This document shows positions 32,092-54,641 of a stretch of 64,000 nt of DNA, in pieces. Source of the DNA: an uncultured Candidatus Saccharibacteria bacterium (GTDB taxonomy: Bacteria > Patescibacteriota > Saccharimonadia > Saccharimonadales > JAUPVS01); NCBI GenBank assembly GCA_964627095.1, contig CAZVKH010000001.1, positions 86,337-150,336 of the forward strand. The letters run 5' to 3'. A model generated the notes under the pieces. That model saw nothing but the letters and a program-made list of their open reading frames with translations, was not told the DNA's origin and searched no databases. Every line of letters starts with the position of its first letter. Positions within the stretch are counted from its first letter, which is position 1. The position numbers were made by a program, and so were the translations under genes.

Positions 32092-32401
32092 AATCTTCTT
32101 TCTGTATGTGCTCCTAAAGTATACCAGAGCACACCTCTATACGACGAACGACCCAGTCAAGGTCCGTACGTTCGTAAAATTAACAATGTTTACCCCGTCA
32201 ATTCTAGCAAGTTTTCCCCAGATGGACAAACTTTTTCCACACATTCTCTAGGGGTGGTGAGTGGCTGTGTACAAATTTACCCCTAAAAGCCTATTTTGGA
32301 CTGTCCGGCAATTTGGTTTATAAAAAGCTGTGGAAAACCCCAAATATTATGTGTATAGTAAGGCTACTAGCGAGGGATGGCAGCGGGTAAAAGGAGATAA
32401 A
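32092..32401. promoter_or_regulatory. rpmH-dnaA intergenic region with DnaA-box-like 9-mers (left part of putative oriC, and dnaA promoter)
   Basis: TTTTCCACA lies at 32233-32241 and its inverted copy TGTGGAAAA at 32329-32337. TGTGTACAA (reverse complement TTGTACACA) lies at 32266-32274. All fit TTNTNCACA. Confidence 0.5.
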
Positions 32402-33787
32402 GTGTTGGTAAAAGAAGCTGATGTTTGGCAGGCGGTTCTGGGCGAAATAGAGCTCAGTGTTCCTCATGGCAGCTACATAACCTGGTTTAAACCGACTCGC
32501 ATACTTAAAATGACTGACGAAGTTTTGGTAATTGGCGTGGTTAACGTCTTTGCTAAGCAACAGATGGAAAAACGCTACACGCCACTTCTAAAAGAAATCC
32601 TAGCCAAGAATGGCGTTAAAGCTAAGACACTTGAGTTCAAAATAAATTCCAGCCTTGGTGTTAAAAGATCTAACGAAGACGACACCGTAGTTGTACAAAA
32701 AGAGAACACGCCGGCCCCAAAACAAACACCGGCTTATCGCAGCAGCGGCAACACCTTGAGCCACTCTTATCGCCAGGGGCTAAACGAGCGCTATACTTTT
32801 GATAACTTTGTAGTCGGCTCTGGTAATGAGCTAGCTTACGCTGCCTGCCAAGCCATCGCTCAAAACCCAGGCACAAAATATAACCCGCTCTTTTTATATG
32901 GTGGCGCCGGTATTGGCAAAACTCATCTTATTCAAGCCGTTGGTAACGCTGTTATCACCAATAAAAAGGATGCTCGCGTTGTTTATGCCTCAACTGAGCA
33001 ATTCGTTCAAGAGTTTGTTGATGCTCTGCGCTACAAAAAGAACACCGACTTCGCTAATCACTACCGCAATGTCGATGTTTTAATTGTTGACGATGTGCAG
33101 TTTTTGGCCGGGAAGGAAAAAATCCAGGAAGAGTTTTTCCATACCTTTAATGCTCTCCATCAAGCCAATAAACAGATTATTATTAGCAGTGACAAACCGC
33201 CGCGCGATATTCCAACCCTAGAAGACCGCCTAAAATCGCGTTTTACCTGGGGGATGTCGATCGACATGCAAAACCCAGACTTTGAAACCCGTTGTGCTAT
33301 TGTCCAAATCAAAGCCTCGGCTCATAACCTAAACCTTGAACCAGATTTGGTTGAGTTCTTGTCGAACCTATACCAGACCAATATCAGGGAACTAGAAGGC
33401 GCCTTAAACCAGCTATTAGCATTCTGCGAAATGCGTGGCTTGGAGCCAGACCTAATTGTTGCTACCGGTTTGTTGGGCGGCCGCAAGAGTCGCCCCAAAC
33501 ACGTTACCCCAAAACAAGTGGTTGAGCGTACTGCCAAACACTTCCATGTATCAATTGACGATATTATTGGCCCCAAGCGCGACAAAGACATTGTGGTGCC
33601 GCGACAGGTAGCCATGTATATATTGCGCAGCGAGCTTCATATGAGCTTTCCAAAGATCGCCCAGGAACTAGGCCGTAAAGACCACACCACCGCCATACAT
33701 TCTGTTGAAAAAATCAACAAAGAAATGGCTTTTGATACCGATATTCGCGAAGCTATTGCCCAAATTAAGGAGCGTTTGTATGTTTAA
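32402..33787 (+). CDS. dnaA: chromosomal replication initiator protein DnaA
   Basis: Walker A is GGAGIGKTHL, Walker B is VLIVDDVQFL, and the domain IV helix is RQVAMYILRSEL..SFPKIAQELGRKDHTTAIHSVEKI. I place the start at the in-frame GTG at 32402, which has AAGGAG 5 nt upstream. The track ATG at 32330 adds 24 non-conserved residues across a DnaA box. Confidence 0.95.
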   Translation: MLVKEADVWQAVLGEIELSVPHGSYITWFKPTRILKMTDEVLVIGVVNVFAKQQMEKRYTPLLKEILAKNGVKAKTLEFKINSSLGVKRSNEDDTVVVQKENTPAPKQTPAYRSSGNTLSHSYRQGLNERYTFDNFVVGSGNELAYAACQAIAQNPGTKYNPLFLYGGAGIGKTHLIQAVGNAVITNKKDARVVYASTEQFVQEFVDALRYKKNTDFANHYRNVDVLIVDDVQFLAGKEKIQEEFFHTFNALHQANKQIIISSDKPPRDIPTLEDRLKSRFTWGMSIDMQNPDFETRCAIVQIKASAHNLNLEPDLVEFLSNLYQTNIRELEGALNQLLAFCEMRGLEPDLIVATGLLGGRKSRPKHVTPKQVVERTAKHFHVSIDDIIGPKRDKDIVVPRQVAMYILRSELHMSFPKIAQELGRKDHTTAIHSVEKINKEMAFDTDIREAIAQIKERLYV

Positions 33788-34028
33788 GGCTTGTGGACAA
33801 ACTATGGTTTACTTGCGGGTATCTTTTGGCTTATCCCCTGCCCTACTTAAACAGAAATTATTTGTGGGTATAAGCCCGTCTTTATACCAGCGGTTGTCCA
33901 AATTTTGTACTCAGTTTTTACACACCACTAGAACCATTATTACATCTGTTAAATTAACCTTTTACCCATTTTACACACCCCCTACTATAACGATAACTAC
34001 ATATATATAAGGAGTAATAGTAATTGTT
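33788..34028. promoter_or_regulatory. dnaA-dnaN intergenic DnaA-box cluster plus AT-rich stretch (right part of putative oriC)
   Basis: TGTGGACAA lies at 33792-33800 (reverse complement TTGTCCACA). TTTTACACA occurs twice, at 33916-33924 and 33969-33977, each within the 11-mer TTTTACACACC. A weaker TGTGGGTAT lies at 33863-33871. An AT-rich tract (CTATAACGATAACTACATATATATAAGGAGTAATAGTAATTGTT) lies just before dnaN. Confidence 0.6.
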
Positions 34029-35120
34029 ATGAAGCTACAAGTTACCCAAGAAAATCTAAACAAAGCCTTAGCCAATGTTGCCCGCATTGCCAATAGCCGC
34101 ACTACCCTACCCATCCTTTCCAACGTGCTACTAAAAACCGTAAATAATCGTTTAAGCATCGCTGCCACAAACCTAGACATTGCCATCACCCACTATGTTG
34201 GTGCCAAGGTTCAAAAAGAAGGCTCAATTACTGTTCCAGCTCGCCTTATGCAAGACTTCGTTGGCAGTCTACCAAACGGTACAATCACACTTGAATTAGA
34301 TGAACATAAACTTAAAGTGAGTGCCGGCCAATACCAATCGACAATTAACGGAATAAGCGCCGAAGACTACCCAGTAATGCCGGCTATTACTGATGGTGCC
34401 GAATGGTCGATCCCCACCCCAGTTTTTAAAAAAGGTTTGCAACAAGTTGTTTTGGCGGCTTCAGGTGACGAGACTAGACCAGTTCTAACTGGTATATATC
34501 TATACACAGAAAGCAATAACCTATATTTGGCTGCCACCGACAGCTATCGATTAGCCGAGAAAAAACTAACCAAGCTCGACAACCCTGTTAAGCTACTCGT
34601 CCCGGCAACAGCTATGCAAGACCTGTTGCGCGTACTTGGTGACGGCGAAGAGGTTGTTAGTGTGGTCCACGACGATCAGCAAGTATTATTTAAAGTAAAT
34701 GATGTCGAGCTAGTGGCGCGACTAATTGAGGGTAATTATCCAGATTACAAACGTCTTATACCGGCTAGCTTTGTTACCACTGCCACGATTAAAAAGTCTG
34801 AGCTTAGTAGTATTACTAAAGTTTCTAGTTTGTTTGCCCGCGAAAGCGCCGGTAGCGTGACACTAAAAGTCGATGAAACTAAACAACAAATCAGTATTCA
34901 CTCAGTCGCCTCACAACTTGGCGAAAATACCGCCCAAGCCGAAGCCCAGATTAAGGGAGACGGCGAGATCACTCTTAATTCTAGGTACCTTTTAGACGCA
35001 CTTGGTGTAATCGACGGTGACGAAGTGGACTTTTGTTTTAATGGTAAACTCGAAGCCTGTGTAATTAAAGCGACTAAAAGCAAAGACTATATTCACATCA
35101 TCATGCCACTTAAGAGCTAA
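34029..35120 (+). CDS. dnaN: DNA polymerase III beta sliding clamp
   Basis: The 363-aa sequence MKLQVTQENLNKALANVARIANSRTTLPILSNVLL...ATDSYRLAE has the canonical three-domain clamp signature and dnaA-dnaN synteny. Confidence 0.95.
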   Translation: MKLQVTQENLNKALANVARIANSRTTLPILSNVLLKTVNNRLSIAATNLDIAITHYVGAKVQKEGSITVPARLMQDFVGSLPNGTITLELDEHKLKVSAGQYQSTINGISAEDYPVMPAITDGAEWSIPTPVFKKGLQQVVLAASGDETRPVLTGIYLYTESNNLYLAATDSYRLAEKKLTKLDNPVKLLVPATAMQDLLRVLGDGEEVVSVVHDDQQVLFKVNDVELVARLIEGNYPDYKRLIPASFVTTATIKKSELSSITKVSSLFARESAGSVTLKVDETKQQISIHSVASQLGENTAQAEAQIKGDGEITLNSRYLLDALGVIDGDEVDFCFNGKLEACVIKATKSKDYIHIIMPLKS

Positions 35121-37734: not shown

Positions 37735-39597
37735 TTAGTTTGTGCAGCCAGAGGTTGGCAGCGCGTTAATATCAGGGATATTGCCTTCGACAATGCCTAC
37801 GAAAAATGTTTGAGGACAATGGCCCGTACCATTAACTTTAATACCCACATGCAAGTGTGGACCAGATGAGTTGCCGGTGCTGGCGGAGTGCATAATTAGC
37901 TGGCCGGGCTTGACGACATCGCCGACGCTGGCGCCAGGAACCGAGCCACCATCTGAGCCGTGGCAGTAAACAAAACTAATTCCGTTTCCGGCATCGATGG
38001 AAACTCCAAGCCCGCACTTCCCGCCGTTAGGAGCACTGGTTATTTTGCCGCCCGACATCGAGTAAACTGGCGTACCAGTTGGTACTGGGATGTCCGAAGC
38101 TGGGTAGTCATGATGGGGTTTGGTGAACCACTGCTTGTGTTCGTCATACCACTTGCGGTCTAAAGGCAGAGCAAATTCGCCCGGAGCGGTTCCACTCGGT
38201 GCGCAAGCGGCGGTGGTGCCACCCGTAGAACCGGTGCTTCCACCATATTTTGCGAGAGCGTCGTTGGCATATTGGTTTCGCAAATTCCAACCTTTACTGC
38301 CCGGGTTCTGTGAGTCCCCAGAAATCTCATACCTTTTATTGAAAAGGATGGTAGCCTCTTCGGCGGTTTTGGTGGCTCGCATAGCATCACCAATAGCCTG
38401 CCTTGGGCCACCCACGCTAAGCTGGTATACGAGGTAGCTTAGCTGCCCTTGCAGACTACCGGGATCACCCCCATTAGCTGTTACCCAGGCGGCCATCTCA
38501 TCAAGTTGTCTTCCTCCAGTCCAGGCTACCAACCCGTAACCCTTGCCCGTTCCGTCCGGTCCATGGGTTTCGTTACTGGCAAGAAATTCAGCGATAGGTC
38601 GGGAGTTTTGAGCCGTTCTACCCTGTTCGATCTGGGGTTCAACACCAGATTCACGAACAAAGTTACCAACAAAACCGGCCGCCTGTTCAGGTGTATAACC
38701 GGCACTAACCATGTAATGGAAGGCCTTTTCGGCGTTTTCCGAGCCAACCAGCTCGCTATTGGCATTGGCTTTGCAGGCACAATCACCGCCCGCCGTGGCA
38801 ACAGTCGCCGCGTTAGCATTTACGGCTGTCGAGCCGGTCGAGTTATCCGAAACAGCACCAACCACCTGGGTAACAAGTTGGTTTACACCGGCCGGTATCG
38901 ATGGGTGGGTGGCATCTTCCAGAATTTTGAGTGGGTTATTGGTACCGTCACCATCTGGGTCAACTGTTTTTGCCCACGGGATTACCTTGATCTTATTTGC
39001 AGTTTCGGCGGCCGACAGCTTGGTGTTAAATTCTGGTACTTGCTTATTGCCGGGTGGCCCGTTGGCAACATTCACCCACCAGATCGGCGCCGATTTATTG
39101 TAGTCGTCTTGGCGAATTGTGTTGATAATTTCATCAATTGGGTTATTGGCTTCTGTTCCATTTGTGCCAAGGGCGATTATGATGCCATCAGCCGCATTAA
39201 TGGCGGCTTTATCGGCCGCCGCCGCTTCTTTACCGGTACCTTCTGTGCCATGGGTGCCTTGGGCTGGGTTGCCAGCCTTTGTCCAGGCTCGACCTGATAC
39301 GGCGCTAATTGTACTGTTTATGCCTTTGGCTGTGAGTTGCTGTTCGTAGGCCGAGACAGAACGAACTGTAATTGAGTCGCCGAGTATGTAGACTTTTGAA
39401 CCACTTTTTAATGGCCCACCAGCCGTGGCTGTTTTAACGCCTTGGCAAGCCGCTGCGGCTGCCGCGTCATAATACGGGGTTCCGGTAATGAAGGATTGTA
39501 TGGTTGACTCGGAATAGGCGGAAGCCTGCGCTGTTACTAAAGCGCAAATTACCAGCACCGAAGCCAACAATTTTAACGAGTGCTTGATAATACGCAT
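37735..39597 (-). CDS. secreted three-domain cell-wall hydrolase: SGNH/GDSL esterase + phage-tail-lysozyme-like domain + M23 metallopeptidase
   Basis: The signal peptide ends in QASA-YS. The SGNH blocks are VYILGDSIT, IIIALGTNG and EDATHP. The central domain reads FHYMVSAGYTPEQAAGFVGNFVRESG..GYGLVAWTGGRQ..QLSYLVYQL (phage tail lysozyme type). The C-terminal M23 domain reads PVYSMSGGKI..GDVVKPGQLIMHSASTGNSSGPHLHVGI. Confidence 0.75.
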   Translation of the reverse strand: MRIIKHSLKLLASVLVICALVTAQASAYSESTIQSFITGTPYYDAAAAAACQGVKTATAGGPLKSGSKVYILGDSITVRSVSAYEQQLTAKGINSTISAVSGRAWTKAGNPAQGTHGTEGTGKEAAAADKAAINAADGIIIALGTNGTEANNPIDEIINTIRQDDYNKSAPIWWVNVANGPPGNKQVPEFNTKLSAAETANKIKVIPWAKTVDPDGDGTNNPLKILEDATHPSIPAGVNQLVTQVVGAVSDNSTGSTAVNANAATVATAGGDCACKANANSELVGSENAEKAFHYMVSAGYTPEQAAGFVGNFVRESGVEPQIEQGRTAQNSRPIAEFLASNETHGPDGTGKGYGLVAWTGGRQLDEMAAWVTANGGDPGSLQGQLSYLVYQLSVGGPRQAIGDAMRATKTAEEATILFNKRYEISGDSQNPGSKGWNLRNQYANDALAKYGGSTGSTGGTTAACAPSGTAPGEFALPLDRKWYDEHKQWFTKPHHDYPASDIPVPTGTPVYSMSGGKITSAPNGGKCGLGVSIDAGNGISFVYCHGSDGGSVPGASVGDVVKPGQLIMHSASTGNSSGPHLHVGIKVNGTGHCPQTFFVGIVEGNIPDINALPTSGCTN

Positions 39598-39599
39598 AA

Positions 39600-42587
39600 C
39601 TACTTACCGTCCCTCGACCAGTGCCATGGCTCAGCGGGGAGGTTTATATAACCAAAACCAGCAGCGTTGGCAGCCATCCACTTAAAGCATGGGCTGCTCC
39701 GACTCGAGATTATTGTTTTGCCACAAAGAAAGTCGTTGGCAAAACCCATTTGGTGATTTGAGTAGCCGGGTCGAGCGGTTTGTGGGCTACAACTTTTTGC
39801 TGGCGAGTTATAGATGTCCGGGCAGTGGTTGGCTATACGCGTGGAAACCTGCTGATCCATAGTTCGGAAACCACCACCACCGCCCAGTTCAACGCCAGCG
39901 GCCTTAGCAGCGTTGAGCATGTTATTAAAGTTATTGGCGTACTGCGAGTTAACCACCGAACCCTGAACTTTACACAACCTAATCTTGAACAACTTGCCGT
40001 TTTCGTAGCCATCGCCAACCCCGGCGTCTTCACCTACCGGGCAGGTTTGGCTAGAGGTGTCGCCAGCAATGATCTCGGTGGTTATGGTGCCCGCCGAAGC
40101 CGCGCTGGCATCAGCTGGCCCAGCTTTTGGTGTCAGATCCTCCTCGAGCATGGTCACTACATACGGATCGAGGCCTTTGTAGATGCGGTATCGGAAAGCC
40201 TTTTCGGTCGATAGTTTTTCGGCCGTGCAGCCACCCGGCACCTCGGTTACCTTTTTGGGGGTAAAACAGGACTCGACGGCGTTACCAAGGGCATCGTCCA
40301 GTTCTTTTTGAACCTTTTCTATACCACCCTGAGCAATTATCCAGGCCTCATTTTCTTCTAGCGAGTAGCTTGAGTCGGTATTAAGCTTATTAAGTTCTGC
40401 GCGTGAAAAGCCCCATTGTGGAACGCCGTGATGGTCTACGGGGGTAGCCGCCTGCGCCAGTTTAGGCGAACCAAGCAAGCGCGAGGGGTTTAGTATGCTA
40501 CCAACCGAACCGAACCAAGAGCCGACTTTCTGGCTGGCACTATTCACACTAGCCGGTGTGCTGCCAGCAGCCATGGAAACTAGCGAGTATGGGTTGCTGG
40601 TGGCAAAGTAACGTTCTGACCAAGGGCGACTTTGATTCTGCTCTAAAAGTGCCAACTGGGCATCTTCGTCGGTTTCCTGAATCTCTTGTTCGGTTAACGG
40701 GCGAGCCCGGAAACCCTGCCGCATGTTTTCTTTCTCAAGTGAATCGGCTCCAACAGTAGATTTAGAATAGAGGTTGGCACCCTCCTCGGTCCCAGAATAA
40801 GAGATGCCGCCGAGTAACTGAACCGAATAATCGAGGGCGAGTTGAACAATTGTAAAACCGGCTATCTGGACGGCCCCCTCTTTACTGACTATTCCACGAG
40901 CAGCTTGGCCAAAACCTTGCAACACCTTTGTGCCAAAGGTTCTAATTGCTGTTTGTTCGGCGGCTTCACCAGCGACAGCCGTCGAACCACCACTGGCTAC
41001 CGCCAACACGGCCTGACCAATAATTTCAGTACCAGCAATAGCTACCTGACCGGCTGGGTGCAACATAAAGCCACAGAATTTTTTATCAATTTCGTCACCT
41101 AAAGGAGTTGCCCCAGCCCCCGGTACCAGGCTCGAAGGACTGGTGACAAGATTTACAATATCAACTACTGTGGGGTCTATACTTGGCGACACCGAGGGTA
41201 CGTTGTAGTCGTCGGGCTCAGGATAGTCGGTGCGTCCATTCATTTGGCGTTGATATTCGGGTGAGGCGTCGGCTCCATCCCAGCGCCGGCCATCGGCTGC
41301 AACCACCTCCGCGGTCGACTCACCTCTTTTTATCTGGTCTCCCCCAGTCATGGCTTCGTGGGCCAGTCGCTGCGAGTTCTCCTGGTTTATTTCGGTTGCC
41401 TCATCAAGTTTTGTGGCTGCTTGATTAACCATGCAGGCCAGGGTTGAAGCAAGAACAACTGTAGATACGGTTGAGGTCGCCTTTGCGAGCTGGGCATCGC
41501 CAGCCGCCTTATTGACCGATTGAGTCACAATATCACCGGTTGCCCCCTCATCAATCGACTTAACGATGTTTTCGCGCGATTTCTTAATTGTATCTTCGGT
41601 AGTAGGGTCGGTAGCGCCAACCGAATCGGGCGCCGTATTATTAAACGATTGTTTGCGGTTTTCGGCATAGGCTTCTTTGGGGGTCTTCCCAAGAAACTCG
41701 CGGCCGCGTTGTGCCCAGCGAGTCATCTTAATGCCCGAAGTCTGGCGGATACCATCATAGACGCTGCTACGGACGTAACGCTTATCAATCCTCAGGGTAT
41801 TTTCCACCCCATACTTAACTTCACCAACAAACTCGGACTTAATCGTCATTCTTTCCCGAACCTTAAGCTTATTCTTTAATGAATTAGCATCAGCCCAACT
41901 TTCGAAGCCGTTACGCTTAGCAATTTCATCTAGGGATATGGTTTCACCATCGATGGTTACCCCTTTAAACTCATTAACACCGCGACCCGTCCAAGTTTTA
42001 CCTTTGTCCATATCAAGTTTAAGCTTATTTTCTGTGCCCAGGGCCTTTAGCTGTTTTTCGGGGTTAATGCGGCGCAGGCGCTCAGTTAATGTTCGCTTTT
42101 CTAGTACGGCCGAACCCTCGCCCTGTACAACAGCTGCGTCAAACAGGTTCTGTGAGGCGCGCTGACGTAATACTACCTGGAGACGAGCAAAGCCAGCCGT
42201 ACTTAGAGCTTGACCAAAGTGAACCGGTTTTAGACTGGCCAAGAAGACCAGCACAACAATTGCAATAATAAATACTCCGCCGCCACCAGCGCCGGCCGCT
42301 AGAACTTTCTTATTTCGCAAAAAACTAACTTTACCCGAAAAGGCCTTACTGCCACCGCCCGGGCCACCCGTAAACAAACTAGGGCCCTCGTTAGCTGGCT
42401 CTTGGGTGCCCTTTTGCTCATTGGCTTTTAGTTGCTGGGCATCGATCGCTGCCGTTTTCTTGTTTTCGTAAGGGCTTCTAGCGGCCTGAACCTCCATCTC
42501 TTTAGGGGTCTGGCCATCAGCGTCCGATATCGGCCTACGCTTAAGAGTGTCTGGCGAGCCGGTGTCTTGATCGTCGTAAACAGCCAT
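39600..42587 (-). CDS. 995-aa membrane protein with a C-terminal VanY/M15-type D-Ala-D-Ala (LD/DD) carboxypeptidase domain
   Basis: It has a disordered, charged N-terminus, a Gly-rich TM (VLAAGAGGGGVFIIAIVVLVFLASL) and a long central region with further hydrophobic stretches. The C-terminal motifs GGFRTMDQQ, PGYSNHQMGFANDF and EPWHW match the SxHxxGxAxD / EPWH signature of peptidase M15B. Confidence 0.7.
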   Translation of the reverse strand: MAVYDDQDTGSPDTLKRRPISDADGQTPKEMEVQAARSPYENKKTAAIDAQQLKANEQKGTQEPANEGPSLFTGGPGGGSKAFSGKVSFLRNKKVLAAGAGGGGVFIIAIVVLVFLASLKPVHFGQALSTAGFARLQVVLRQRASQNLFDAAVVQGEGSAVLEKRTLTERLRRINPEKQLKALGTENKLKLDMDKGKTWTGRGVNEFKGVTIDGETISLDEIAKRNGFESWADANSLKNKLKVRERMTIKSEFVGEVKYGVENTLRIDKRYVRSSVYDGIRQTSGIKMTRWAQRGREFLGKTPKEAYAENRKQSFNNTAPDSVGATDPTTEDTIKKSRENIVKSIDEGATGDIVTQSVNKAAGDAQLAKATSTVSTVVLASTLACMVNQAATKLDEATEINQENSQRLAHEAMTGGDQIKRGESTAEVVAADGRRWDGADASPEYQRQMNGRTDYPEPDDYNVPSVSPSIDPTVVDIVNLVTSPSSLVPGAGATPLGDEIDKKFCGFMLHPAGQVAIAGTEIIGQAVLAVASGGSTAVAGEAAEQTAIRTFGTKVLQGFGQAARGIVSKEGAVQIAGFTIVQLALDYSVQLLGGISYSGTEEGANLYSKSTVGADSLEKENMRQGFRARPLTEQEIQETDEDAQLALLEQNQSRPWSERYFATSNPYSLVSMAAGSTPASVNSASQKVGSWFGSVGSILNPSRLLGSPKLAQAATPVDHHGVPQWGFSRAELNKLNTDSSYSLEENEAWIIAQGGIEKVQKELDDALGNAVESCFTPKKVTEVPGGCTAEKLSTEKAFRYRIYKGLDPYVVTMLEEDLTPKAGPADASAASAGTITTEIIAGDTSSQTCPVGEDAGVGDGYENGKLFKIRLCKVQGSVVNSQYANNFNNMLNAAKAAGVELGGGGGFRTMDQQVSTRIANHCPDIYNSPAKSCSPQTARPGYSNHQMGFANDFLCGKTIISSRSSPCFKWMAANAAGFGYINLPAEPWHWSRDGK

Positions 42588-46411: not shown

Positions 46412-49012
46412 CTATTTAAGCCGCGGCCCATAGTACTCTGGGCCGGTGGATCTTGTGTCGGTAGAAGCAGGCAAATTCTGATAGACACCAGTTTTCTCGG
46501 CCAGCTTTCTGACTTCCTCGGCGACATGCGCCGAACCTGGGGCGTTGGTTTGGACTACACTTTGAGCAGTTCCTGGGGCGACACCTGGAGGAGGGGTCGT
46601 GCCAATAACGGCACCATCAGCATCAAGCTGTGGTTGACCAGCGCCACCACCGTATCGCGACACCCAGTTCTCGGCAACTGCGGTCGCCTTCCCTTGAGTT
46701 TCTGAATCTTTAACTTTGCCAGTGGTGGCGTCAACTTTGCTGGAGTCATCGTAGGCTTGGCCAATACGCTTAATTGTATGGGCGTTGAATTGTGATGCGG
46801 CATAGCTGGCCCGGTTTTCGTAAAGATCATCAACGAATGACTTGTTATCCATACTACCATCAAGTTTCATGTGCTTGAACTCGAGGTGTTTAGCTTGGTT
46901 TTCAAAGCCAGCCCCCTTTAAGGACCCAGCGGCCTGGCCATCACTCATACCCCAGCCGCCAGCCCCGGTGGCCAGTGTTTGGTAGCGATCGGCAATGCCC
47001 TGGACTTCTTCGTCTTTGGAAGCCTTACTCATTTCGTAAGACAGAGCGGCCTGTTGAGCATAGACGTCATTCTTCCAACGTCCTCTACCGGCGTCAACCG
47101 CCCCTTCGCTTACCCAAGCGCCACCCAAGGTCTTATATTCTCGAGCCCCCGACTTGCCATTTATACGCATCAAGTCGTTAGACATATGGCCGTCGGCATC
47201 TTTAGTTAAAGCCCCAGCGCGCTGTGCAGCCAACTTATTGACAGTCAAACCACGGATTTCTTCGTCGCGACCGGTGTTTATTTGGTCCTTTATTTCCTTG
47301 GCAACTGATGCCTGGCGGGCCGAGGCTTGAGCTTGAATGTTATAGCCACTAATCCCCTTGGAAGCACCTTTTAGGGCCATGCGTGATAGAGCGCTACGGT
47401 TGGCGTCGGAACTGGCGTCTTGCAATTGGCTTCCCCACTTGGCCCGGTTGGCAACAACCCGGCGGCCTTGGTGTTCGCGGTGGCGGGCGCCCGAGTTCTG
47501 ACGGAATTTGCCAATACCGGCCGACAGTCCCTTGGTGCGGTCATTAACCATGCCGCTCACGGCTCCAACGGCTCCACCAGCTAGTTTGAAGGCCGTTGGT
47601 ATCATAAAGTACGGTAAGAAGTAGGCGGCAAAGGCTATGAACTGTTCCAGTAGGCCGGCATCGGGTACGCTTGACACTACCCTAGAAAAGACTCGGCCGG
47701 TAGCAATAAAGGCCATGATAATTGGGAATGCCAACAAGGCTTTTAAGAAAAAGTCCCACCACATCTTCCAGAAACGCTGGGTATTTGGAAGTACCGAAGC
47801 CACAATCGCAATTGGCGCCAAGATTACTAAAAGAAGTATCAACATCTTTCGTATAACCAGTACAAAGAAGGCGACAAATACCGCCAGAAGTGCCGTTAGT
47901 CCAAACGACAGTAAACCAAGGAGCCCCAGTGAGCCAGCGCCAACCGCAAAGCCAGCCACTGCCAGCGTACTTGTGCCGCTATCGACTTTAGCTGCGTCTA
48001 TGCCACTAAAAGGCGCGGTAATTAGGGCACCAACGCCCTGGCCAAGATCGTTAGATACTTCAATAGCAAACTTGCAGACTGACCAAGACAAAGTGACGAA
48101 TATTATGGCTATGATCAGGCGTGGTAAAACTTTCCTAATTGTATAAGCATCAAACGCGTCAATCGAAAGTGCCTCCGAAAATATCATTATCAAGGCTATG
48201 ACAACTAAGAGTGTTAGGGCTATAAACCTAAAACTACTCCAGGCTGAAAAAAAGCCGTTTCCGCTATTGTTGTCGCCTAGGAATTTGTCGGTATCTATTG
48301 TCATCTCATTACTAATCGCTTTGTCCAGCAGGACTACGGCTTGGTTGGCGGTGGCGATTAAAGGACACATTATCCACGTCAGCGGGTTAGCTGTTGTTTC
48401 ACACTCTAAACCCTCGGTCGCATCCTTACCTTCTTCTGCTTTCTCTTTGGCGGCCGCCTCGTCTAGTACTTTCTGTTCTTCCTTTGCCACTGTGGTGTCA
48501 GAAAATATCCAGCCCCGTGAGGTGCCGGCCAAGTCCTTAAAGCTGTCAGATGAGGCGTTAGTCTTATCGCCCCCACCAATCCGGTAAGACATGCCCGTGA
48601 TAGGTATAGAAACACCGTTCGTTCCAGAGTATTTTTTTAAATCACTTTTTTTAACTTGTAAGTTAAATGATCGGCTTAGGTCGCCTTCTGTAAACGTTAC
48701 TGTACCTGAGTACTGAACAAAATTCTGGCCGTCATCTTCGGCCGTTTTGGCGAACATAATCCGCGATTCTTTTACGAATGCCGTGTCCTCGTTTTGGACA
48801 AAGAGAATATTATCATCATTTATATATATGAAGCCGTAACCGCCGCCAAATTGTTTAGGACTGGTGTACTGTTGTGGCGCGCTTTCCGCCAAAGCACTGG
48901 CTGGTAGCAGGCCCAACAATAAACCAATAACAGATATAAATAGAAAACTCGTAGCAAAGGCAATCCTTAAATACGGGCGATTCTTTTTTATTCTTGCAAA
49001 CTGTTTAAGCAT
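46412..49012 (-). CDS. VirB6/TrbL-like polytopic channel protein with a surface N-domain and a large cytoplasmic C-domain
   Basis: It has a signal or anchor sequence, a roughly 200-aa extracytoplasmic domain, about 7 TM helices (residues ~240-500) and a charged C-terminal region of about 370 aa. It is the first gene of an operon with PrgI/VirB4. The architecture call is moderate and was not confirmed by sequence search. Confidence 0.55.
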   Translation of the reverse strand: MLKQFARIKKNRPYLRIAFATSFLFISVIGLLLGLLPASALAESAPQQYTSPKQFGGGYGFIYINDDNILFVQNEDTAFVKESRIMFAKTAEDDGQNFVQYSGTVTFTEGDLSRSFNLQVKKSDLKKYSGTNGVSIPITGMSYRIGGGDKTNASSDSFKDLAGTSRGWIFSDTTVAKEEQKVLDEAAAKEKAEEGKDATEGLECETTANPLTWIMCPLIATANQAVVLLDKAISNEMTIDTDKFLGDNNSGNGFFSAWSSFRFIALTLLVVIALIMIFSEALSIDAFDAYTIRKVLPRLIIAIIFVTLSWSVCKFAIEVSNDLGQGVGALITAPFSGIDAAKVDSGTSTLAVAGFAVGAGSLGLLGLLSFGLTALLAVFVAFFVLVIRKMLILLLVILAPIAIVASVLPNTQRFWKMWWDFFLKALLAFPIIMAFIATGRVFSRVVSSVPDAGLLEQFIAFAAYFLPYFMIPTAFKLAGGAVGAVSGMVNDRTKGLSAGIGKFRQNSGARHREHQGRRVVANRAKWGSQLQDASSDANRSALSRMALKGASKGISGYNIQAQASARQASVAKEIKDQINTGRDEEIRGLTVNKLAAQRAGALTKDADGHMSNDLMRINGKSGAREYKTLGGAWVSEGAVDAGRGRWKNDVYAQQAALSYEMSKASKDEEVQGIADRYQTLATGAGGWGMSDGQAAGSLKGAGFENQAKHLEFKHMKLDGSMDNKSFVDDLYENRASYAASQFNAHTIKRIGQAYDDSSKVDATTGKVKDSETQGKATAVAENWVSRYGGGAGQPQLDADGAVIGTTPPPGVAPGTAQSVVQTNAPGSAHVAEEVRKLAEKTGVYQNLPASTDTRSTGPEYYGPRLK

Positions 49013-49152
49013 AACGACTATTTAATTCTAGGTCGCTTGTGGTTTATTCACAACCCAAAATTCTATCAACGGTTATTCTGCTCCATAAATAGGAGTCTGT
49101 AAAGACCCAACGGTAACTCTATAAAAATAACAACGTTTAGGATATAATTGTT

Positions 49153-49704
49153 ATGAAAATGGATCAACAAACACAAAACCGACCCGATTTTAATTTTATT
49201 CTGAACCAACCTGGCCCAGATAATGCGAAACGAGCTAAGCGCTCGCCACTGGTTTTTGGGATTGCCGTGATACTAATTTTGGCAATCGTAGGCTTGGCGG
49301 TTATGGTGTTATTTGTACCTGCCAAAGGTGTTACTGATGTTGCCAGCACCGATACTAAGCAAGCCGATAGCGCTGTTTCTGGGGATGCCACCGATGCATA
49401 TTTTGAGGCATTGCGTAAAGATGACCCCGACACCGCTTATAATCAGCTATCTGATGAAGTTAAACAAACCAATACTAAAAGCGAATTTTTAGAGCGCACC
49501 ACCATCGTCTATGCCAATATCAAGCTAGATAGCTGCCAAAAGACGGCGGAAACGGGTAATTTAGAAAAAGGAAATCGAACCGCCGTATATGAATGTTCTA
49601 CAATAAAGGGGTTAACAGACGCCAAAATTACCCTATCGTTAGTCGACCAGTCTGGTGACGCAAGAATCGGTAGTATTAAAATAAGTAGCAAGGAAAAGGC
49701 ATGA
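49153..49704 (+). CDS. single-pass membrane protein, first gene of the pilin operon (unknown function)
   Basis: The TM is LVFGIAVILILAIVGLAVMVLFV, followed by a roughly 120-aa ectodomain with two Cys. An ATGA overlap with pilin paralogue 1 indicates translational coupling. Confidence 0.55.
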   Translation: MKMDQQTQNRPDFNFILNQPGPDNAKRAKRSPLVFGIAVILILAIVGLAVMVLFVPAKGVTDVASTDTKQADSAVSGDATDAYFEALRKDDPDTAYNQLSDEVKQTNTKSEFLERTTIVYANIKLDSCQKTAETGNLEKGNRTAVYECSTIKGLTDAKITLSLVDQSGDARIGSIKISSKEKA

Positions 49705-50360
49705 TTCAAAGATTCCGAAATGTAGGGATAGCCGGATTGTTTTTTGCTGTGCTCAGCTTTTCTTTGTTTTCACTTGGTAATACAGTTCATGCTCTTGCGC
49801 CGGGGTGTTACACCAAGGGGCAGGCGCAAAACTCTCAAGGCACAACGGGAAATGCGACACCTGGTTGGGCAACCAAACCCTGCCAAGATTTGGTAACGGT
49901 TTTCCCTGATTTTACTGTGGCCCCAGAAGACTGCTACTTTACTTGGGAGACCGAACTGGGTCCCTCAACTCCTGTTAAATACAAATGCGAAGAACCGCCA
50001 TCTTTTAGCGCAGCGGTCGTAAAGCCAAAAGATGGGAAACCAGGTAATGGACCAGAGGGTCCCCAAGACATCGAAGCCGACCCGACATTTAACAGCACTC
50101 AGTGTAACGGTAAAGAAGTTACTAGTAGCGACAACTGCATTATCGAAAATATTAATGTGGCTATAAATATTCTGTCTGGTAGCATCGGGCTGCTTGTAAT
50201 AATTGTAATTATTATTGCCGGTATTCAATACACAACGGCTGCTGGTGATCCGCAAAGAATTGGCAAAGCCAAGAACCGAATACGTAATGCTATCATTGCT
50301 TTAGTGGCCTATATGTTCTTGTATGGGTTCTTGCAATGGGTCATACCAGGAGGTCTCTAA
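49701..50360 (+). CDS. T4SS pilin-like protein, paralogue 1 (VirB2/TrbC-type C-terminal hairpin, ~150-aa six-Cys ectodomain)
   Basis: The signal peptide ends in VHA-LA. The C-terminal module is LSGSIGLLVIIVIIIAGIQYTTAAGDPQRIGKAKNRIRNAIIALVAYMFLYGFLQWV, shared with the five following genes. Confidence 0.7.
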   Translation: MIQRFRNVGIAGLFFAVLSFSLFSLGNTVHALAPGCYTKGQAQNSQGTTGNATPGWATKPCQDLVTVFPDFTVAPEDCYFTWETELGPSTPVKYKCEEPPSFSAAVVKPKDGKPGNGPEGPQDIEADPTFNSTQCNGKEVTSSDNCIIENINVAINILSGSIGLLVIIVIIIAGIQYTTAAGDPQRIGKAKNRIRNAIIALVAYMFLYGFLQWVIPGGL

Positions 50361-50762
50361 ATGCTACTAAGTTTATTAACACGAATCGCAGCCGAAAAAG
50401 CGGCGCTTGATTGTGCGGCCGACAAATCCAAAACATTCTTTGGTCTACCGGTTTGGTACAAGTACCTCAAGATGGAAACAGTCAGTAAAGAAGGACTATC
50501 GGTCTGCAAAGTTGACATCGATTTTGTCCAAAACCCATCCGATGTCTGGGCGATCTTACTAGGTATTATCGATATTCTATTAAGAGTCGGTGGTATCGCG
50601 GCAGTTATTTATGTAATGTATGGCGGCTTTTTGTATATGACCAGCCAAGGTGAGCCCGACCGAACAAAACAAGCCAAGGAAACAATAATTGGCTCAATCA
50701 TAGGTTTGGTTATTGTTTTGCTGGCCGCCCAGATAGTGTCATTTATTGGGAATCGATTGTAA
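50361..50762 (+). CDS. T4SS pilin-like protein, paralogue 2
   Basis: The C-terminal module is VGGIAAVIYVMYGGFLYMTSQGEPDRTKQAKETIIGSIIGLVIVLLAAQIVSFI. There is no clear signal peptide. It has two Cys. Confidence 0.7.
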   Translation: MLLSLLTRIAAEKAALDCAADKSKTFFGLPVWYKYLKMETVSKEGLSVCKVDIDFVQNPSDVWAILLGIIDILLRVGGIAAVIYVMYGGFLYMTSQGEPDRTKQAKETIIGSIIGLVIVLLAAQIVSFIGNRL

Positions 50763-50774
50763 ACTGGAGAAAGC

Positions 50775-51074
50775 ATGCTACAACACCTCAGACAAATTGC
50801 CACCGAAATAGATCTTTCGCCGTTGCCCAATGGACCCGGCGGGACTAAAAGCGAGGATGCGATTCCAGTAATCGTTGGTGTTGTATTTGCTGCCCTCGGA
50901 GCAATATCGGTGTTGATGATTGTCATCGGCGGATTTCAGTATGTTATCTCGCAGGGTGACCCGCAACGTGTTGCCAAAGCCAAGGACACAATTATGTACG
51001 CCGTAATTGGTTTGGTGATATCGCTGCTTTCTTATGCCATAGTTGCATTTGTTATTACGGAGATAACCAAGTAA
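50775..51074 (+). CDS. T4SS pilin-like protein, paralogue 3 (minimal, 99 aa)
   Basis: The C-terminal module is LGAISVLMIVIGGFQYVISQGDPQRVAKAKDTIMYAVIGLVISLLSYAIVAFV. It has no Cys and no signal peptide. Confidence 0.7.
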   Translation: MLQHLRQIATEIDLSPLPNGPGGTKSEDAIPVIVGVVFAALGAISVLMIVIGGFQYVISQGDPQRVAKAKDTIMYAVIGLVISLLSYAIVAFVITEITK

Positions 51075-51460
51075 TGCGCAAATATCTTGCAGGCATCCTT
51101 GCCATTGTCTTGTCGGTCCTAGTGTTTACCGCCTTAACACCGGTTTATGCCGAGAATTTAACCCAACAGGCCTGCCAGGCGACCGGGGCAGAAGGCAGCT
51201 CAAGTGCTTGCGTTAACCAGACCGATGACCCCATTACCGGACCAAAAGGTATAATTGGCAGAGCCATCGATCTTATAAGTATTCTAGTTGGTGTCGCTTC
51301 GGTAATTGTTATTATGGTAGCCGGATTTAACTTTATAACCTCGCAAGGCGAACCGGCTGCCTTAAGTAAGGCCAAAAACAGTTTGATTTTTGCAGTTATT
51401 GGTATAGTTATTGTCGTAATGGCGCAAATTATCGCTGGTTTTGTTGTTAAACAAGTGTAA
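51074..51460 (+). CDS. T4SS pilin-like protein, paralogue 4
   Basis: The signal peptide ends in VYA-EN, followed by a C-x11-C loop. The C-terminal module is VGVASVIVIMVAGFNFITSQGEPAALSKAKNSLIFAVIGIVIVVMAQIIAGFV. A TAATG overlap couples it to paralogue 3. Confidence 0.7.
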   Translation: MRKYLAGILAIVLSVLVFTALTPVYAENLTQQACQATGAEGSSSACVNQTDDPITGPKGIIGRAIDLISILVGVASVIVIMVAGFNFITSQGEPAALSKAKNSLIFAVIGIVIVVMAQIIAGFVVKQV

Positions 51461-51485
51461 AAAGAAACTAAAAAGGAAATCTTAT

Positions 51486-51869
51486 ATGAAAAAACTACTA
51501 ACCCTAACACTCATAGCGCTGAGTTTGGTTATGGTAGCCGGTCCAGCTGTTGTGTCGGCCGAGTCCGCCAAAGACTCGGTTTGTGCTGGAATTGGGCTGA
51601 CCGGTGGTTCAGACAACTGCGACCCACCGGCCAATGGACCTACTGTCCAAAGTGCTTTGCAGGCTGCTATAAGAATTCTTAGCTATCTTATTGGATTTGC
51701 AGCCGTGGTGATGTTGATGATCGCTGGATTCAAATTCATAACAGCCGGTGGTGAGCCGGCAAAGATTGCTAGTGCCCGTGACACCATTCTGTACTCTGTC
51801 ATTGGCCTGGTGGTGGCCATGCTGGCGCAATTAATAGTTAACTTTGTGCTGACAAATCCTAAGCTTTAG
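51486..51869 (+). CDS. T4SS pilin-like protein, paralogue 5
   Basis: The start is set at the ATG at 51486 (MKKLLTL, after AAAGGAAA). The track start at 51441 overlaps paralogue 4. The signal peptide ends in VSA-ES, followed by a C-x11-C loop. The module is IGFAAVVMLMIAGFKFITAGGEPAKIASARDTILYSVIGLVVAMLAQLIVNFV. Confidence 0.7.
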   Translation: MKKLLTLTLIALSLVMVAGPAVVSAESAKDSVCAGIGLTGGSDNCDPPANGPTVQSALQAAIRILSYLIGFAAVVMLMIAGFKFITAGGEPAKIASARDTILYSVIGLVVAMLAQLIVNFVLTNPKL

Positions 51870-51945
51870 CGCTATTTGGACTTGCTCAACACAACAGAGA
51901 TGTGATATAACCAAAACAGTTATATAAGAAAGGTAAAAAGAATTC

Positions 51946-52365
51946 ATGATCAAAAAAATCAAACTTGCGATAGTCGCTTTCGTTTCACTAAGCCTGTTCG
52001 CTGCTCCACTTATGGTGCCAGCTGCAGTTTATGCCGCCGACGAGATAGAACAAGGTCTTTGTTCCGGTGCTAACCTAAACGCTTCATCAGATGGAAGTTG
52101 TGACGTTACAGCCGAAGAAGCTCAAGGAACTGTTAACAACACCATAACATTCGTTATTAACACCTTCTCGATAGTTGTCGGTGTTGCCGCGGTTATTATG
52201 ATTATTGTTGGTGGTTTCCGCTACATCATCTCTGGTGGTGACTCCGGTAACGTTCAGTCAGCCAAGAACACAATCCTATTTGCGGTTGTCGGTCTTGTGG
52301 TCGTTGCACTATCTCAGTTCATCGTCAAGTTCGTACTTTCCAAAGTATCTTCAGCTACTACCTAA
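51946..52365 (+). CDS. T4SS pilin-like protein, paralogue 6
   Basis: The signal peptide ends in VYA-AD, followed by a C-x12-C loop. The module is VGVAAVIMIIVGGFRYIISGGDSGNVQSAKNTILFAVVGLVVVALSQFIVKFV. It has its own 76-nt upstream spacer and is followed by a strong terminator. Confidence 0.7.
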   Translation: MIKKIKLAIVAFVSLSLFAAPLMVPAAVYAADEIEQGLCSGANLNASSDGSCDVTAEEAQGTVNNTITFVINTFSIVVGVAAVIMIIVGGFRYIISGGDSGNVQSAKNTILFAVVGLVVVALSQFIVKFVLSKVSSATT

Positions 52366-52380
52366 CCGACTAGTAGTTAC

Positions 52381-52410
52381 AAAAAAACCGCCTTCTCGGG
52401 CGGTTTTTTA
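52381..52410. terminator. bidirectional rho-independent terminator between the pilin operon (+) and hsp20 (-)
   Basis: In AAAAAAACCGCCTTCTCGGGCGGTTTTTTA the GC stem ACCGCC/GGCGGT encloses a 6-nt loop. It is flanked by an A-tract on one side and a T-tract on the other, so it can terminate both convergent units. Confidence 0.7.
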
Positions 52411-52427
52411 ATTGCCTATAAAACTTA

Positions 52428-52913
52428 CTATAGGACTTGGATCTTCTTAACAGTATCTTGCTTGAGTTTGCGGAAGCTAATGGTCAAAACGCCGTCCTTA
52501 AGGAGGGCTTCGACCTCGTCTTCTTTAACTGGTACTGGCAAGGCAATGCTGCGTGAGAACTCGCCCCAGTAGCATTCTTGAACAAAGTAGTTTTCGACTT
52601 CTTCTTCGTTACCAGCCGACAAAGTGCCGCGGATACTAAGAGTGTTGTCGGCAATGCTAACATCAAGCTCATTCTTGTTTACACCAGCCGTTCGTGCCTT
52701 AACAACTAACTTCTCGGTAGTTTCGTAGACATCAACAGCTAATTGACCAGGTACAGCTTCGTCTTCGTCCCATTCATCGCTGGCCGGTGCTTGAGCAGTG
52801 GCTGCTGGAGCGTCGGCCGGAGCGTCGCTGGTTGGTAGGTCATCATCACCTAGGAAGGCGGCGGTCAACTCATCTTCCATCAATAAATCGTCATCGCGGT
52901 TTCGTCGCGCCAT
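52428..52913 (-). CDS. Hsp20/alpha-crystallin family small heat-shock protein
   Basis: An acidic N-terminus is followed by the alpha-crystallin domain QLAVDVYETTEKLVVKARTAGV..LDVSIADNTLSIRG...GEFSRSIALPVPV..EALLKDGVLTISF. Confidence 0.9.
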   Translation of the reverse strand: MARRNRDDDLLMEDELTAAFLGDDDLPTSDAPADAPAATAQAPASDEWDEDEAVPGQLAVDVYETTEKLVVKARTAGVNKNELDVSIADNTLSIRGTLSAGNEEEVENYFVQECYWGEFSRSIALPVPVKEDEVEALLKDGVLTISFRKLKQDTVKKIQVL

Positions 52914-53794: not shown

Positions 53795-53886
<92 letters not shown>

Positions 53887-53903
53887 AAGGGAAACAATTT
53901 AAC

Positions 53904-53996
53904 TGGCGGAGGAGGAGGGATTCGAACCCTCGCTGGAACTTGCGCCCCACTAACGATTTAGCAAACCGTCCCCTTCAGCCACTTGGGTACTCCTCC
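53904..53996 (-). tRNA. tRNA-Ser (anticodon GCT), CCA encoded
   Basis: The reverse complement is GGAGGAGTACCCAAGTGGCTGAAGGGGACGGTTTGCTAAATCGTTAGTGGGGCGCAAGTTCCAGCGAGGGTTCGAATCCCTCCTCCTCCGCCA. The anticodon loop is TTGCTAA and the variable arm is long. Confidence 0.9.
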
Positions 53997-54089
53997 GTAC
54001 GTGAACATTGTGGTTTTACACAGGCTGAACAGGGAGATTATATCAGAGAGAGCGTTGCTTTTACAGTGGCAGACGAATACAATACGCTT

Positions 54090-54641
54090 ATGCATCCCGA
54101 CGCCGCCACCCAAAATGCCCCCGAGCCGGGTTGGGAATTTAAGCCAGGTGATAGCACGGCACCGCCAACAGATAAGACCAAAGAGTTATCAGTCAGCTGG
54201 ACTGCCTCGGAGTTTGTGTTGCACCAAAAAAATACTGGCTGGTACGCCGCCTGGGCATTGGGCAGCTCCGTCAGCGTAGCCGTCGTTTACTTTGTAACCA
54301 GAGAAATTTTTTCATCGGTTTTGGTTGCCGTCATTCTACTGGCTTTCGGTATTTATTCTGGTCGCAAGCCGCGCACGCTGCAGTATCAGGCTGACGGCGA
54401 GGGCATCCATATAGGCTCAAAAACCTATCCGTACAACGATTTTAAGTCGTTTGCGCTAATTGACGAGGGTGCTTTTAATTCGATTAGCCTGGTACCAATG
54501 AAGCGCTTTATGCCAGCTATTAGTATGTACTACGACCCAAGGGACGAAGAGCACGTCTTAACTGTAATTAGTGCTTACTTACCCTTCGAAGAGGGCAAAA
54601 AAGACGCCATCGACCGCCTGATGCACCGCATCCGCTTTTAG
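54090..54641 (+). CDS. two-TM membrane protein of unknown function (possible bacterial PH-like C-domain)
   Basis: I trimmed the track ORF (53808) to the ATG at 54090 because its first 94 codons run antisense through the two tRNA-Ser genes. The TM pair is WYAAWALGSSVSVAVVYFV / SSVLVAVILLAFGIY. Confidence 0.5.
   Translation: MHPDAATQNAPEPGWEFKPGDSTAPPTDKTKELSVSWTASEFVLHQKNTGWYAAWALGSSVSVAVVYFVTREIFSSVLVAVILLAFGIYSGRKPRTLQYQADGEGIHIGSKTYPYNDFKSFALIDEGAFNSISLVPMKRFMPAISMYYDPRDEEHVLTVISAYLPFEEGKKDAIDRLMHRIRF

Follow-up and report, generated by a model that had tools for sequence, protein, structure and literature searches.

A VirB2-like pilin with an exchangeable cysteine-rich head in the type IV secretion locus of Saccharibacteria, a candidate host-contact subunit

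We analyzed a 64,000-nucleotide stretch of DNA from an uncultured Candidatus Saccharibacteria bacterium (assembly GCA_964627095.1, contig CAZVKH010000001.1, positions 86,337 to 150,336 of the forward strand), referred to below as the window. The window contains the chromosomal, dnaA-proximal type IV secretion system (T4SS) locus of Saccharibacteria, which is of the MPF-FATA type, with dnaA and dnaN at 32330-35120. Six consecutive pilin genes lie in this locus (49701..52365), followed by hsp20 and a ComF-like gene. The T4SS and the pilin array are already known; our subject is the first gene of the array, the open reading frame (ORF) 49701..50360, whose 219-amino-acid (aa) product we call pil1. 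The siblings are p2 to p6, and p1 denotes the first position of the array (Table 1). The first-pass annotation, made from the sequence alone, had placed this ORF first among the pilins of the operon and had reported six Cys residues, a C-terminal pilin hairpin, and a start codon that overlaps the preceding 183-aa ORF by 4 nt (ATGA), all of which were confirmed. The Cys residues are at positions 36, 61, 78, 96, 135, and 146 (APGCY, KPCQD, EDCYF, YKCEE, TQCNG, and DNCII, respectively), that is, 6 in ~116 residues against a background of 0.74% Cys in 22 other ORFs of the window (binomial P = 2.5e-4). Public data contain an identical protein (P0001), and the relatives of pil1 come from Patescibacteria, specifically from metagenome-assembled genomes of Saccharibacteria. 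A chance ORF was excluded by the conserved orthologues, which are under purifying selection.

The C-terminal part of pil1 (aa 147-214) matched the Pfam family T4SS_pilin (PF18895) at 38.7 bits, above the cut-off of 26.6. Hydropathy gave two hydrophobic helices, and the helices of the AlphaFold2 model span residues 146-179 and 184-214. The best NCBIfam match of pil1, the Mbov_0395 family (NF045849, aa 146-214), scored 39.0, one below the cut-off of 40. TrbC/VirB2 (PF04956) was not matched by pil1; the sibling p2 passes its cut-off (29.3 vs 27.9). Likeness of pil1 to VirB5/TraC was found neither in Pfam nor, below E = 2.8, among PDB folds. A type IV pilin of the type IV pilus (T4P) or type II secretion system (T2SS) was considered and rejected: pil1 has no class III signal, its signal peptide being of the ordinary Sec type with an AxA site, and its hydrophobic hairpin is at the C-terminus. 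Signal-peptide cleavage is predicted after VHA32, and in the homologues of pil1 an AxA-type site is followed 3-6 residues later by a PGCY motif. The loop between the two helices bears 5 positive and 1 negative charges, and the N-terminal region 8 positive and 15 negative ones. Because the signal peptide precedes the N-terminal region and the basic loop fits the positive-inside rule, this region is predicted to be outside the cell, with the head described below on the outer side of the membrane. Cys135 and Cys146, just before the hairpin, are probably the counterpart of the single pre-hairpin Cys pair in p4, p5, and p6.

Table 1. Features of pil1, the pilin array, and the neighbouring T4SS genes (positions in the window)
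Feature	Position	Strand	Basis
pil1, VirB2-like (T4SS_pilin) protein with N-terminal head	49701..50360	+	ORF and translation, PF18895
pil1 predicted Sec signal peptide, aa 1-32 (MIQRFRNVG..., VHA/LA)	49701..49796	+	hydrophobic segment aa 5-29, predicted helix 2-23
pil1 predicted head domain, aa 33-120, four invariant Cys (36, 61, 78, 96)	49797..50060	+	AlphaFold2, homologue conservation
pil1 head motif, PGCY..GW..C..L..V(F/Y)P.F......CYF(S/T)W.T..GP..PV...C
pil1 predicted flexible linker, Pro/Gly/acidic-rich, aa 121-134	50061..50102	+	pLDDT 56-63
pil1 Cys135-Cys146 loop	50103..50138	+	comparison with siblings p4-p6
pil1 pilin hairpin, aa 147-214, two hydrophobic helices joined by loop YTTAAGDPQRIGKAKNRIRN	50139..50342	+	PF18895, predicted helices
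pil1 C-terminal IPGGL tail, signature of the first-position orthologue group	50343..50357	+	PG[GR] counts over 69 arrays
p2, 133 aa	50361..50762	+	PF18895 above cut-off
p3, 99 aa	50775..51074	+	PF18895 above cut-off
p4, 128 aa	51074..51460	+	PF18895 above cut-off
p5, 127 aa	51486..51869	+	PF18895 above cut-off
p6, 139 aa	51946..52365	+	PF18895 above cut-off
Hypervariable block around divergent promoter (conserved island 49096..49353)	48407..50073		blastn break vs L001, dN
Upstream 183-aa single-pass membrane protein, NTF2-like ectodomain	49153..49704	+	MecA_N/NTF2-like 26.8 bits vs cut-off 22, transmembrane segment
VirB6/TrbL-like polytopic membrane protein, 866 aa, divergent from pilin operon	46412..49012	-	L001 orthologue carries PF19590 TrbL_3
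PrgI/VirB3-like protein, 299 aa	45456..46355	-	PF12666 (Pfam/NCBIfam)
TrsD/TraC-like N-terminal part of VirB4, 299 aa	44529..45428	-	Pfam/NCBIfam
VirB4 ATPase, 642 aa	42601..44529	-	NF045971, 359 bits vs cut-off 325
Two large secreted cell-wall hydrolases directly downstream of VirB4	37735-42587	-	Pfam domains

What sets pil1 apart is the region between the signal peptide and the hairpin. The first-pass annotation had taken it for a six-Cys ectodomain of ~150 aa, about 5 times longer than in the siblings. The region is in fact ~115 aa long after the predicted signal peptide, which is 3.1-3.8 times the length in p4-p6 (30-37 aa) and 1.9-4.3 times that in all five siblings, and only ~88 aa (33-120) of it are predicted to be folded. 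The extra domain is Cys-stabilised as proposed, with four of the six Cys; Cys135 and Cys146 lie outside it. When head homologues were added to the alignment (alignment A4), AlphaFold2 gave a mean predicted local distance difference test score (pLDDT) of 77, and the head scored 81-95 except for the loop 41-54, a lineage-specific insertion unique to this genome. With the first-round alignment (A1; 13 matches), the mean pLDDT was 62 and the head scored 43-75. The modelled head comprises paired strands (35-40/55-59 and 78-84/92-94) and a short helix (61-67), that is, two beta-hairpins bracketed by Cys. On the basis of this strand pairing, the head disulfides would be C36-C61 and C78-C96. Residues 121-145 scored 56-63 even with A4 and are therefore read as a flexible linker. 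The suggestion of a disulfide-stabilised globular head on a pilin anchor is supported by the compact prediction and the invariant head Cys. The same annotation had called for a Foldseek search of the predicted structure; the prediction for residues 33-120 was compact and not disordered, and no fold relative was found in PDB or BFVD. Searched with the full-length A4 model, head and hairpin together, these two databases gave nothing below E = 0.1, and the top matches aligned the helical hairpin only. Foldseek with the A1 model also found nothing, a sequence search of PDB with the pil1 protein and with the head profile gave no match, and Pfam matched the hairpin of pil1 alone.

The family to which this head belongs is small. 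Only P0002 and P0003 (57-59% identity) match pil1 over its full length; the other first-round matches share the hairpin and the last Cys pair alone. A word-indexed protein search with the head alignment (A3) gave no matches, whereas an exhaustive search of 1.84 billion representative proteins with a profile of the N-terminal module found the family, with 14 matches, two of them repetitive junk. The remaining matches are pilin-type proteins of 169-317 aa. The consensus of the head homologues is PGCY..GW..(D/N)C..(L/F)K.(V/I)YP.F.P....KCYFSW.TGFGP.PPV.I.C, followed by a short Pro/Gly-rich segment, and the four head Cys are invariant in 13 homologues (A3). These results support the view that the head is a real folded, Cys-stabilised domain of an orphan family. 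In two of the homologues, P0031 (317 aa) and P0038 (305 aa), the PGCY module occurs twice in tandem before the hairpin, which indicates that the head can be extended by module duplication. The two halves of the P0009 head, CYLTTAAGGGYTQVDC and CYLAGASVGGVGPFSQTEC, resemble each other, and this likeness suggests that the head domain arose through duplication of a hairpin closed by a Cys pair.

We compared the array across a sample of 51 Saccharibacterial loci (GTDB species representatives), 77 metagenome loci, and loci fetched earlier. The array set comprised 69 non-redundant arrays of at least 5 pilins, in which the hairpins were classed by their best match to the six paralogues of the window. 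The order p1-p2-p3 was kept in 48 of the 69 arrays, so that the paralogues are, on this classification, six orthologous positions and not interchangeable copies. Among the six hairpins, that of p1 diverges most, with 28-32% identity to the siblings compared with 31-43% among the siblings. The longest pilin was first in 50 arrays and second in 9. First-position pilins were 117-337 aa long (median, 173), 32 of them having at least 180 aa, and after the signal peptide they carried an even number of Cys (2, 4, 6, 8, 10, or 12) in all but one of the 69 cases, as pairing in disulfides would predict. A PG[GR] C-terminus was found in 47 first-position pilins, in a single second-position pilin, and in none at positions 3-6. 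For pil1 itself, the best hairpin match is p1, the gene is the first of the array, and the tail contains P-G-G (IPGGL), as in the first-position orthologues. In the window, a signal peptide is recognisable in p4, p5, and p6, each of which contains exactly one Cys pair, but at the N-terminus of neither p2 nor p3, and p3 lacks Cys altogether. Of the six positions, the third has the shortest pilins across the arrays (median, 102 aa), most of them without Cys. That the six genes are simple copies for antigenic variation is unlikely, since the positions are orthologous and their order is fixed.

Natural p1-p2 fusions, with two hairpins in one chain, occur at L038:6887-7729, L055:6902-7678, L088:3481-4317, and L110:2456-3106. 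In the window (50358-50363) and in the orthologous locus L001, the stop codon of pil1 abuts the ATG of p2 in frame, and losing or reading through this one stop codon would yield the same p1-p2 fusion. Because of the natural fusions and the abutting in-frame codons, p1 and p2 are probably direct neighbours, present in equal numbers within a defined complex. The fusions also bear on a different explanation, in which pil1 is spread along the whole filament, alone or alternating with p2, and its heads coat the tube and vary to evade recognition by phages, host defences, or competitors rather than to bind a receptor. They imply that p1 is as abundant as p2, and because the termini of VirB2 point to the outside of the filament, any shaft subunit would show an N-terminal extension. 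The variation of positions 4 and 5 in the ERZ773 group (see below) resembles general surface variation, and PMC12102498 proposes antigenic or host-range variation of whole arrays. Six orthologous positions in an order fixed in 48 of 69 arrays, each of them essential in Southlakia, speak instead for distinct structural roles and against interchangeable surface variants. The p1 hairpin, the most divergent of all and with its own C-terminal motif, likewise weighs against this explanation. We consider such a decoration of the shaft unlikely.

The head is the part of pil1 that differs between close relatives. L001 (GCA_030916945) has six pilins identical in length to those of the window, and the amino-acid identity between the two loci is 98% for VirB4, 84-98% for p2-p6, and 97.5% for Hsp20. 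It falls to 71% for the VirB6-like protein (70.6% overall), 56% for pil1, and 48% for the 183-aa protein, and within pil1 the hairpin is 92% identical and the N-terminal region 43%. The divergence is concentrated in a contiguous block that covers residues 1-205 of the VirB6-like protein, the 183-aa ectodomain, and the signal peptide and head of pil1. Nonsynonymous divergence (dN) between the window and L001 is 0.53-0.67 inside this block and 0.007-0.13 outside it, with 0.53 in the pil1 head, 0.66 in the 183-aa ectodomain, and 0.045 in pil1 residues 125-219, a nearly unchanged segment to which the Cys135-Cys146 loop belongs. A recombination or divergence boundary lies at ~aa 125 (nt 50074), where nucleotide similarity to L001 resumes. 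Synonymous sites are saturated for this pair (proportion of synonymous differences, 0.79-0.87 in pil1), and the ratio of dN to synonymous divergence (dN/dS) is therefore unusable for it. A metagenome scan with the conserved p3 protein yielded a single further close relative, L058, which has the same head type as L001. Between L001 and L058, dN/dS was 0.08 in the head and 0.056 in the hairpin part, with no sign of positive selection. The first-pass annotation had suggested a test for elevated diversity of the domain between strains with different hosts; between the related genomes of the window and L001, dN was far higher in the head than in the hairpin, and positive selection was not seen between L001 and L058. 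Given the low ratio in the latter pair, the head is under constraint, and allele replacement seems a likelier source of its difference from the window than steady positive selection.

The same pattern was found in other lineages. Between L043 and L045, the p1 hairpins are 94% identical, whereas the N-terminal regions are 27% identical and the heads unrelated; the nucleotide break between these loci spans the upstream anchored ORF and the p1 head. L004 (238 aa) and L033 (129 aa, headless) differ in the presence of the head. Sequence comparison thus supports the head as an exchangeable module that is swapped while the hairpin is kept. The extent of the blocks could also mean that pil1 stays at the membrane as a component of a base or stalk, its head contacting the VirB6-like and 183-aa ectodomains or the cell's own wall as co-evolving partners. 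The contiguous hypervariable block covers the first ~200 aa of VirB6, the 183-aa ectodomain, and the pil1 head; L043 and L045 differ in a similar block (anchored ORF and p1 head); translation of pil1 is coupled to that of the anchored protein; and the VirB6 of R388 is a docking platform for VirB5 and VirB2. A single recombination event would, however, leave the same contiguous block without any interaction. Many loci, e.g., L004, have no anchored gene upstream of the first pilin, and headless first pilins exist. In addition, the NTF2-like SEML1_0012 of Southlakia is non-essential whereas the pilins are essential. A role at the base is in our view doubtful.

PGCY-type heads are found in first-position pilins only, in ~8 of ~130 loci, so that absence of the domain from orthologous loci, which would have counted against the first-pass proposal, holds for most but not all of them. 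The Cys-rich heads of other lineages are unrelated to this type, and ten further long pilins from the first position match Pfam at the hairpin only. This patchy occurrence argues against a conserved, indispensable adhesin domain and fits an exchangeable specificity module. Another explanation is a released product, in which the head is cut off within the linker as a small Cys-rich effector or signal and the hairpin is a mere anchor or export carrier. Lineages exchange head types much as they would effector cassettes, the exposed linker is predicted to be flexible, and the papers on TM7x, as cited in PMC12102498, call the array "putative effector genes" with Sec-secreted products. On the other hand, no protease site or dedicated protease was found, a strongly conserved hairpin with its own C-terminal motif is unexpected for a mere anchor, and the siblings share the hairpin with almost no N-terminal payload. 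A released product is very improbable on these grounds.

The genes around the array are those of the T4SS. The 183-aa protein encoded just upstream of pil1 may have a VirB8/PrgL/TraM-like architecture, for which the NTF2-like Pfam match is the sole support; a PDB sequence search with this protein gave no match. Judged by the ATGA overlap, pil1 is translationally coupled to this anchored protein, and a purine-rich stretch, AAGGAAAAGG, lies just upstream of the pil1 start. From the 183-aa ORF through p6, the genes are spaced by -4, 0, 12, -1, 25, and 76 nt. A promoter and terminator scan of 48900-52600 gave counts at chance level, so that the operon structure rests on this spacing. On the opposite strand, VirB4 is split into two ORFs with a one-base overlap at 44529, and the split is kept in L001, L004, and L006. 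The two hydrolases, which could act in breaching the wall of the host or of the bacterium itself, are a 995-aa protein with a C-terminal VanY domain and a 620-aa protein with phage-tail lysozyme and M23 peptidase domains. An extra orphan gene without a Pfam match, encoding 343 and 333 aa (66% identical), is present in L001:8282-9313 (-) and L058:391-1392 (-), respectively, between the VirB6-like and anchored genes, where the window has a 140-nt intergenic region (49013-49152). Downstream of the array, two tRNA-Ser genes (TGA and GCT; 53797-53996, -) lie beneath the 5' part of a 277-aa ORF (53808..54641, +), whose start is probably spurious, the L001 orthologue being called as 208 aa.

The array of the window belongs to the same system as the six-pilin array of Southlakia epibionticum, with a dnaA-near position, VirB4, PrgI/VirB3, VirB6, hydrolases, six tandem PF18895 pilins, hsp20, and a ComF-like gene. 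The pilins have 219/133/99/128/127/139 aa in the window and 132/185/103/126/127/138 aa in Southlakia. According to Wang et al. 2023 (PMC10633639), the T4SS genes of Southlakia, including the six pilins SEML1_0014-0019, are essential for epibiotic growth, unlike the NTF2-like SEML1_0012 of the same locus. Quinonero-Coronel et al. 2025 (PMC12102498) describe a chromosomal MPF-FATA-type T4SS for Patescibacteria and report PrgB-like adhesins as undetected there and VirB5 only in a rare Gram-negative-type T4SS. For this system, a pilus is called a "possibility" in a T4SS review. The papers on the Southlakia-type array describe the six pilins as "structurally conserved but sequence-divergent". In the searched passages of this literature, we found neither a head domain nor a distinct first-position orthologue nor head exchange mentioned, and the same holds for the p1-p2 fusions, the co-varying block, and the PGG tail; the titles from further literature searches did not point to such a description either.

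Several known pilins resemble pil1 in part. With the VirB2/TrbC/TraA pilins (PF04956 and PF18895), pil1 shares the signal peptide, the pair of hydrophobic helices with a short basic loop between them, and adjacent VirB4, VirB3, and VirB6 genes. Classical VirB2-type pilins have a short mature N-terminus, whereas pil1 has a predicted folded domain of 88 aa with four Cys, and a linker. VirB2/TrbC/TraA-type pilins are otherwise unknown in monoderms, to which the bacterium of pil1 belongs. The Mbov_0395 family of the Mycoplasma integrative and conjugative element also belongs to a monoderm MPF-FATA T4SS, and its 80-position model has no head. In Bartonella, Anaplasma, and Rickettsia, the VirB2 paralogues vary in a short exposed segment; in pil1, a fixed position carries a whole exchangeable domain. 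Those arrays likewise consist of tandem divergent copies in a host-associated T4SS and have been proposed to widen host interaction. The minor pilin VirB5/TraC has a proposed distal, target-contacting role starting on the VirB6 platform, as may pil1, but is not a VirB2 homologue, has no membrane hairpin, and shows no sequence or fold likeness to pil1. The tip minor pilins of the T4P and T2SS (GspK, PilX, and PilY1-associated sets) also combine a pilin-type anchor with a globular domain in a set of fixed order. They are an analogy only, as their pilin fold and assembly machine are unrelated to those of pil1.

Taken together, the reading that we favor, tentatively and as a serious possibility, is that pil1 is a specialised subunit of a pilus-like T4SS tube whose exchangeable head contacts the host envelope. 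The conserved VirB2-type hairpin would let pil1 co-assemble with its five siblings, and Sec export with cleavage of the signal peptide would leave the head (aa 33-120) at the N-terminus on its flexible linker. In the T-pilus, the VirB2 termini face outward (10.1101/2022.09.25.509369), and with the same orientation pil1 would present its head at the outer surface. With the hairpin and the other parts of the machine conserved, lineages would lose the head or replace it by an unrelated one that is also rich in Cys. Since exchange concerns the head and the rest of the machine is conserved, the likeliest role of the head would be contact with a partner that differs between lineages, the envelope of the host bacterium, as a determinant of host specificity. 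VirB5 is placed on top of VirB6 and finally decorates the pilus tip (PMC9259494); the R388 system has a pentamer of VirB5 on one of VirB6, the proposed site of VirB2 assembly. As a host-specificity determinant, pil1 may stand in, at the far end of the tube, for the VirB5 that is missing. The domain architecture, topology signals, fold confidence, orthology and array position, head exchange, and purifying selection within one head type come directly from the data; we infer the disulfide pairing, co-assembly, surface display, binding, and tip location of pil1 in this scheme. The tip position and adhesin function that the first-pass annotation had proposed are accordingly retained as a hypothesis with circumstantial support.

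A number of observations weigh against this reading. Headless first-position pilins (at most 146 aa) occur in 12 of the 69 arrays, the N-terminal region ranging from absent to ~200 aa, and in Southlakia the extended pilin is the second gene and not the first; a head at position 1 is therefore not required by the machine. The variable position itself differs between clades. In the ERZ773 clade (ERZ773 and related metagenome contigs, loci L059-L068, L075, L076, and L095-L099), the first pilin (162-164 aa) shows 85-98% conservation of its N-terminal region, and the variation falls on the N-terminal regions of positions 4 and 5 (43-77% identity). The p1-p2 fusions would fit a multi-subunit complex better than a lone cap. 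In the searches with Foldseek, a PDB profile, and Pfam, the head showed no likeness to a known adhesin, lectin, or receptor-binding fold. For the window and L001, the saturation of synonymous sites leaves positive selection indistinguishable from relaxed constraint or allele replacement. The logic of a fibre-tip subunit is borrowed from the non-homologous type IV pili, and we know of no VirB2-family pilus whose tip is made of a VirB2 homologue. Finally, electron cryotomography of M. amalyticus shows a "barb" at the tip of a 9-nm tube, the lance, whose width is near that of the 7.6-nm T-pilus, but this lance is without a link to a T4SS. It would be attractive to link the p1/p2 complex to the barb. 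In a bolder version, which we regard as improbable, pil1 would be the host-range determinant of the tube, a VirB2 homologue that acquired the role of VirB5 through fusion of an exchangeable, disulfide-locked head to its hairpin and that forms the barb with p2; upon a change of host, its head would be swapped together with the VirB6 and NTF2-like ectodomains as a single cassette.

Patescibacteria, Saccharibacteria among them, live in dependence on a host bacterium, a way of life for which no T4SS before theirs had been shown to be essential. The pil1 head defines a small orphan Cys-rich fold, and pil1 would be the first VirB2-family pilin with a folded surface domain. Its place in the array is fixed and its stalk is conserved, whereas close relatives exchange its head; these features make pil1 a concrete candidate for the determinant of host specificity. 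As Southlakia and Nanosynbacter are genetically tractable, this candidate is directly testable in them.

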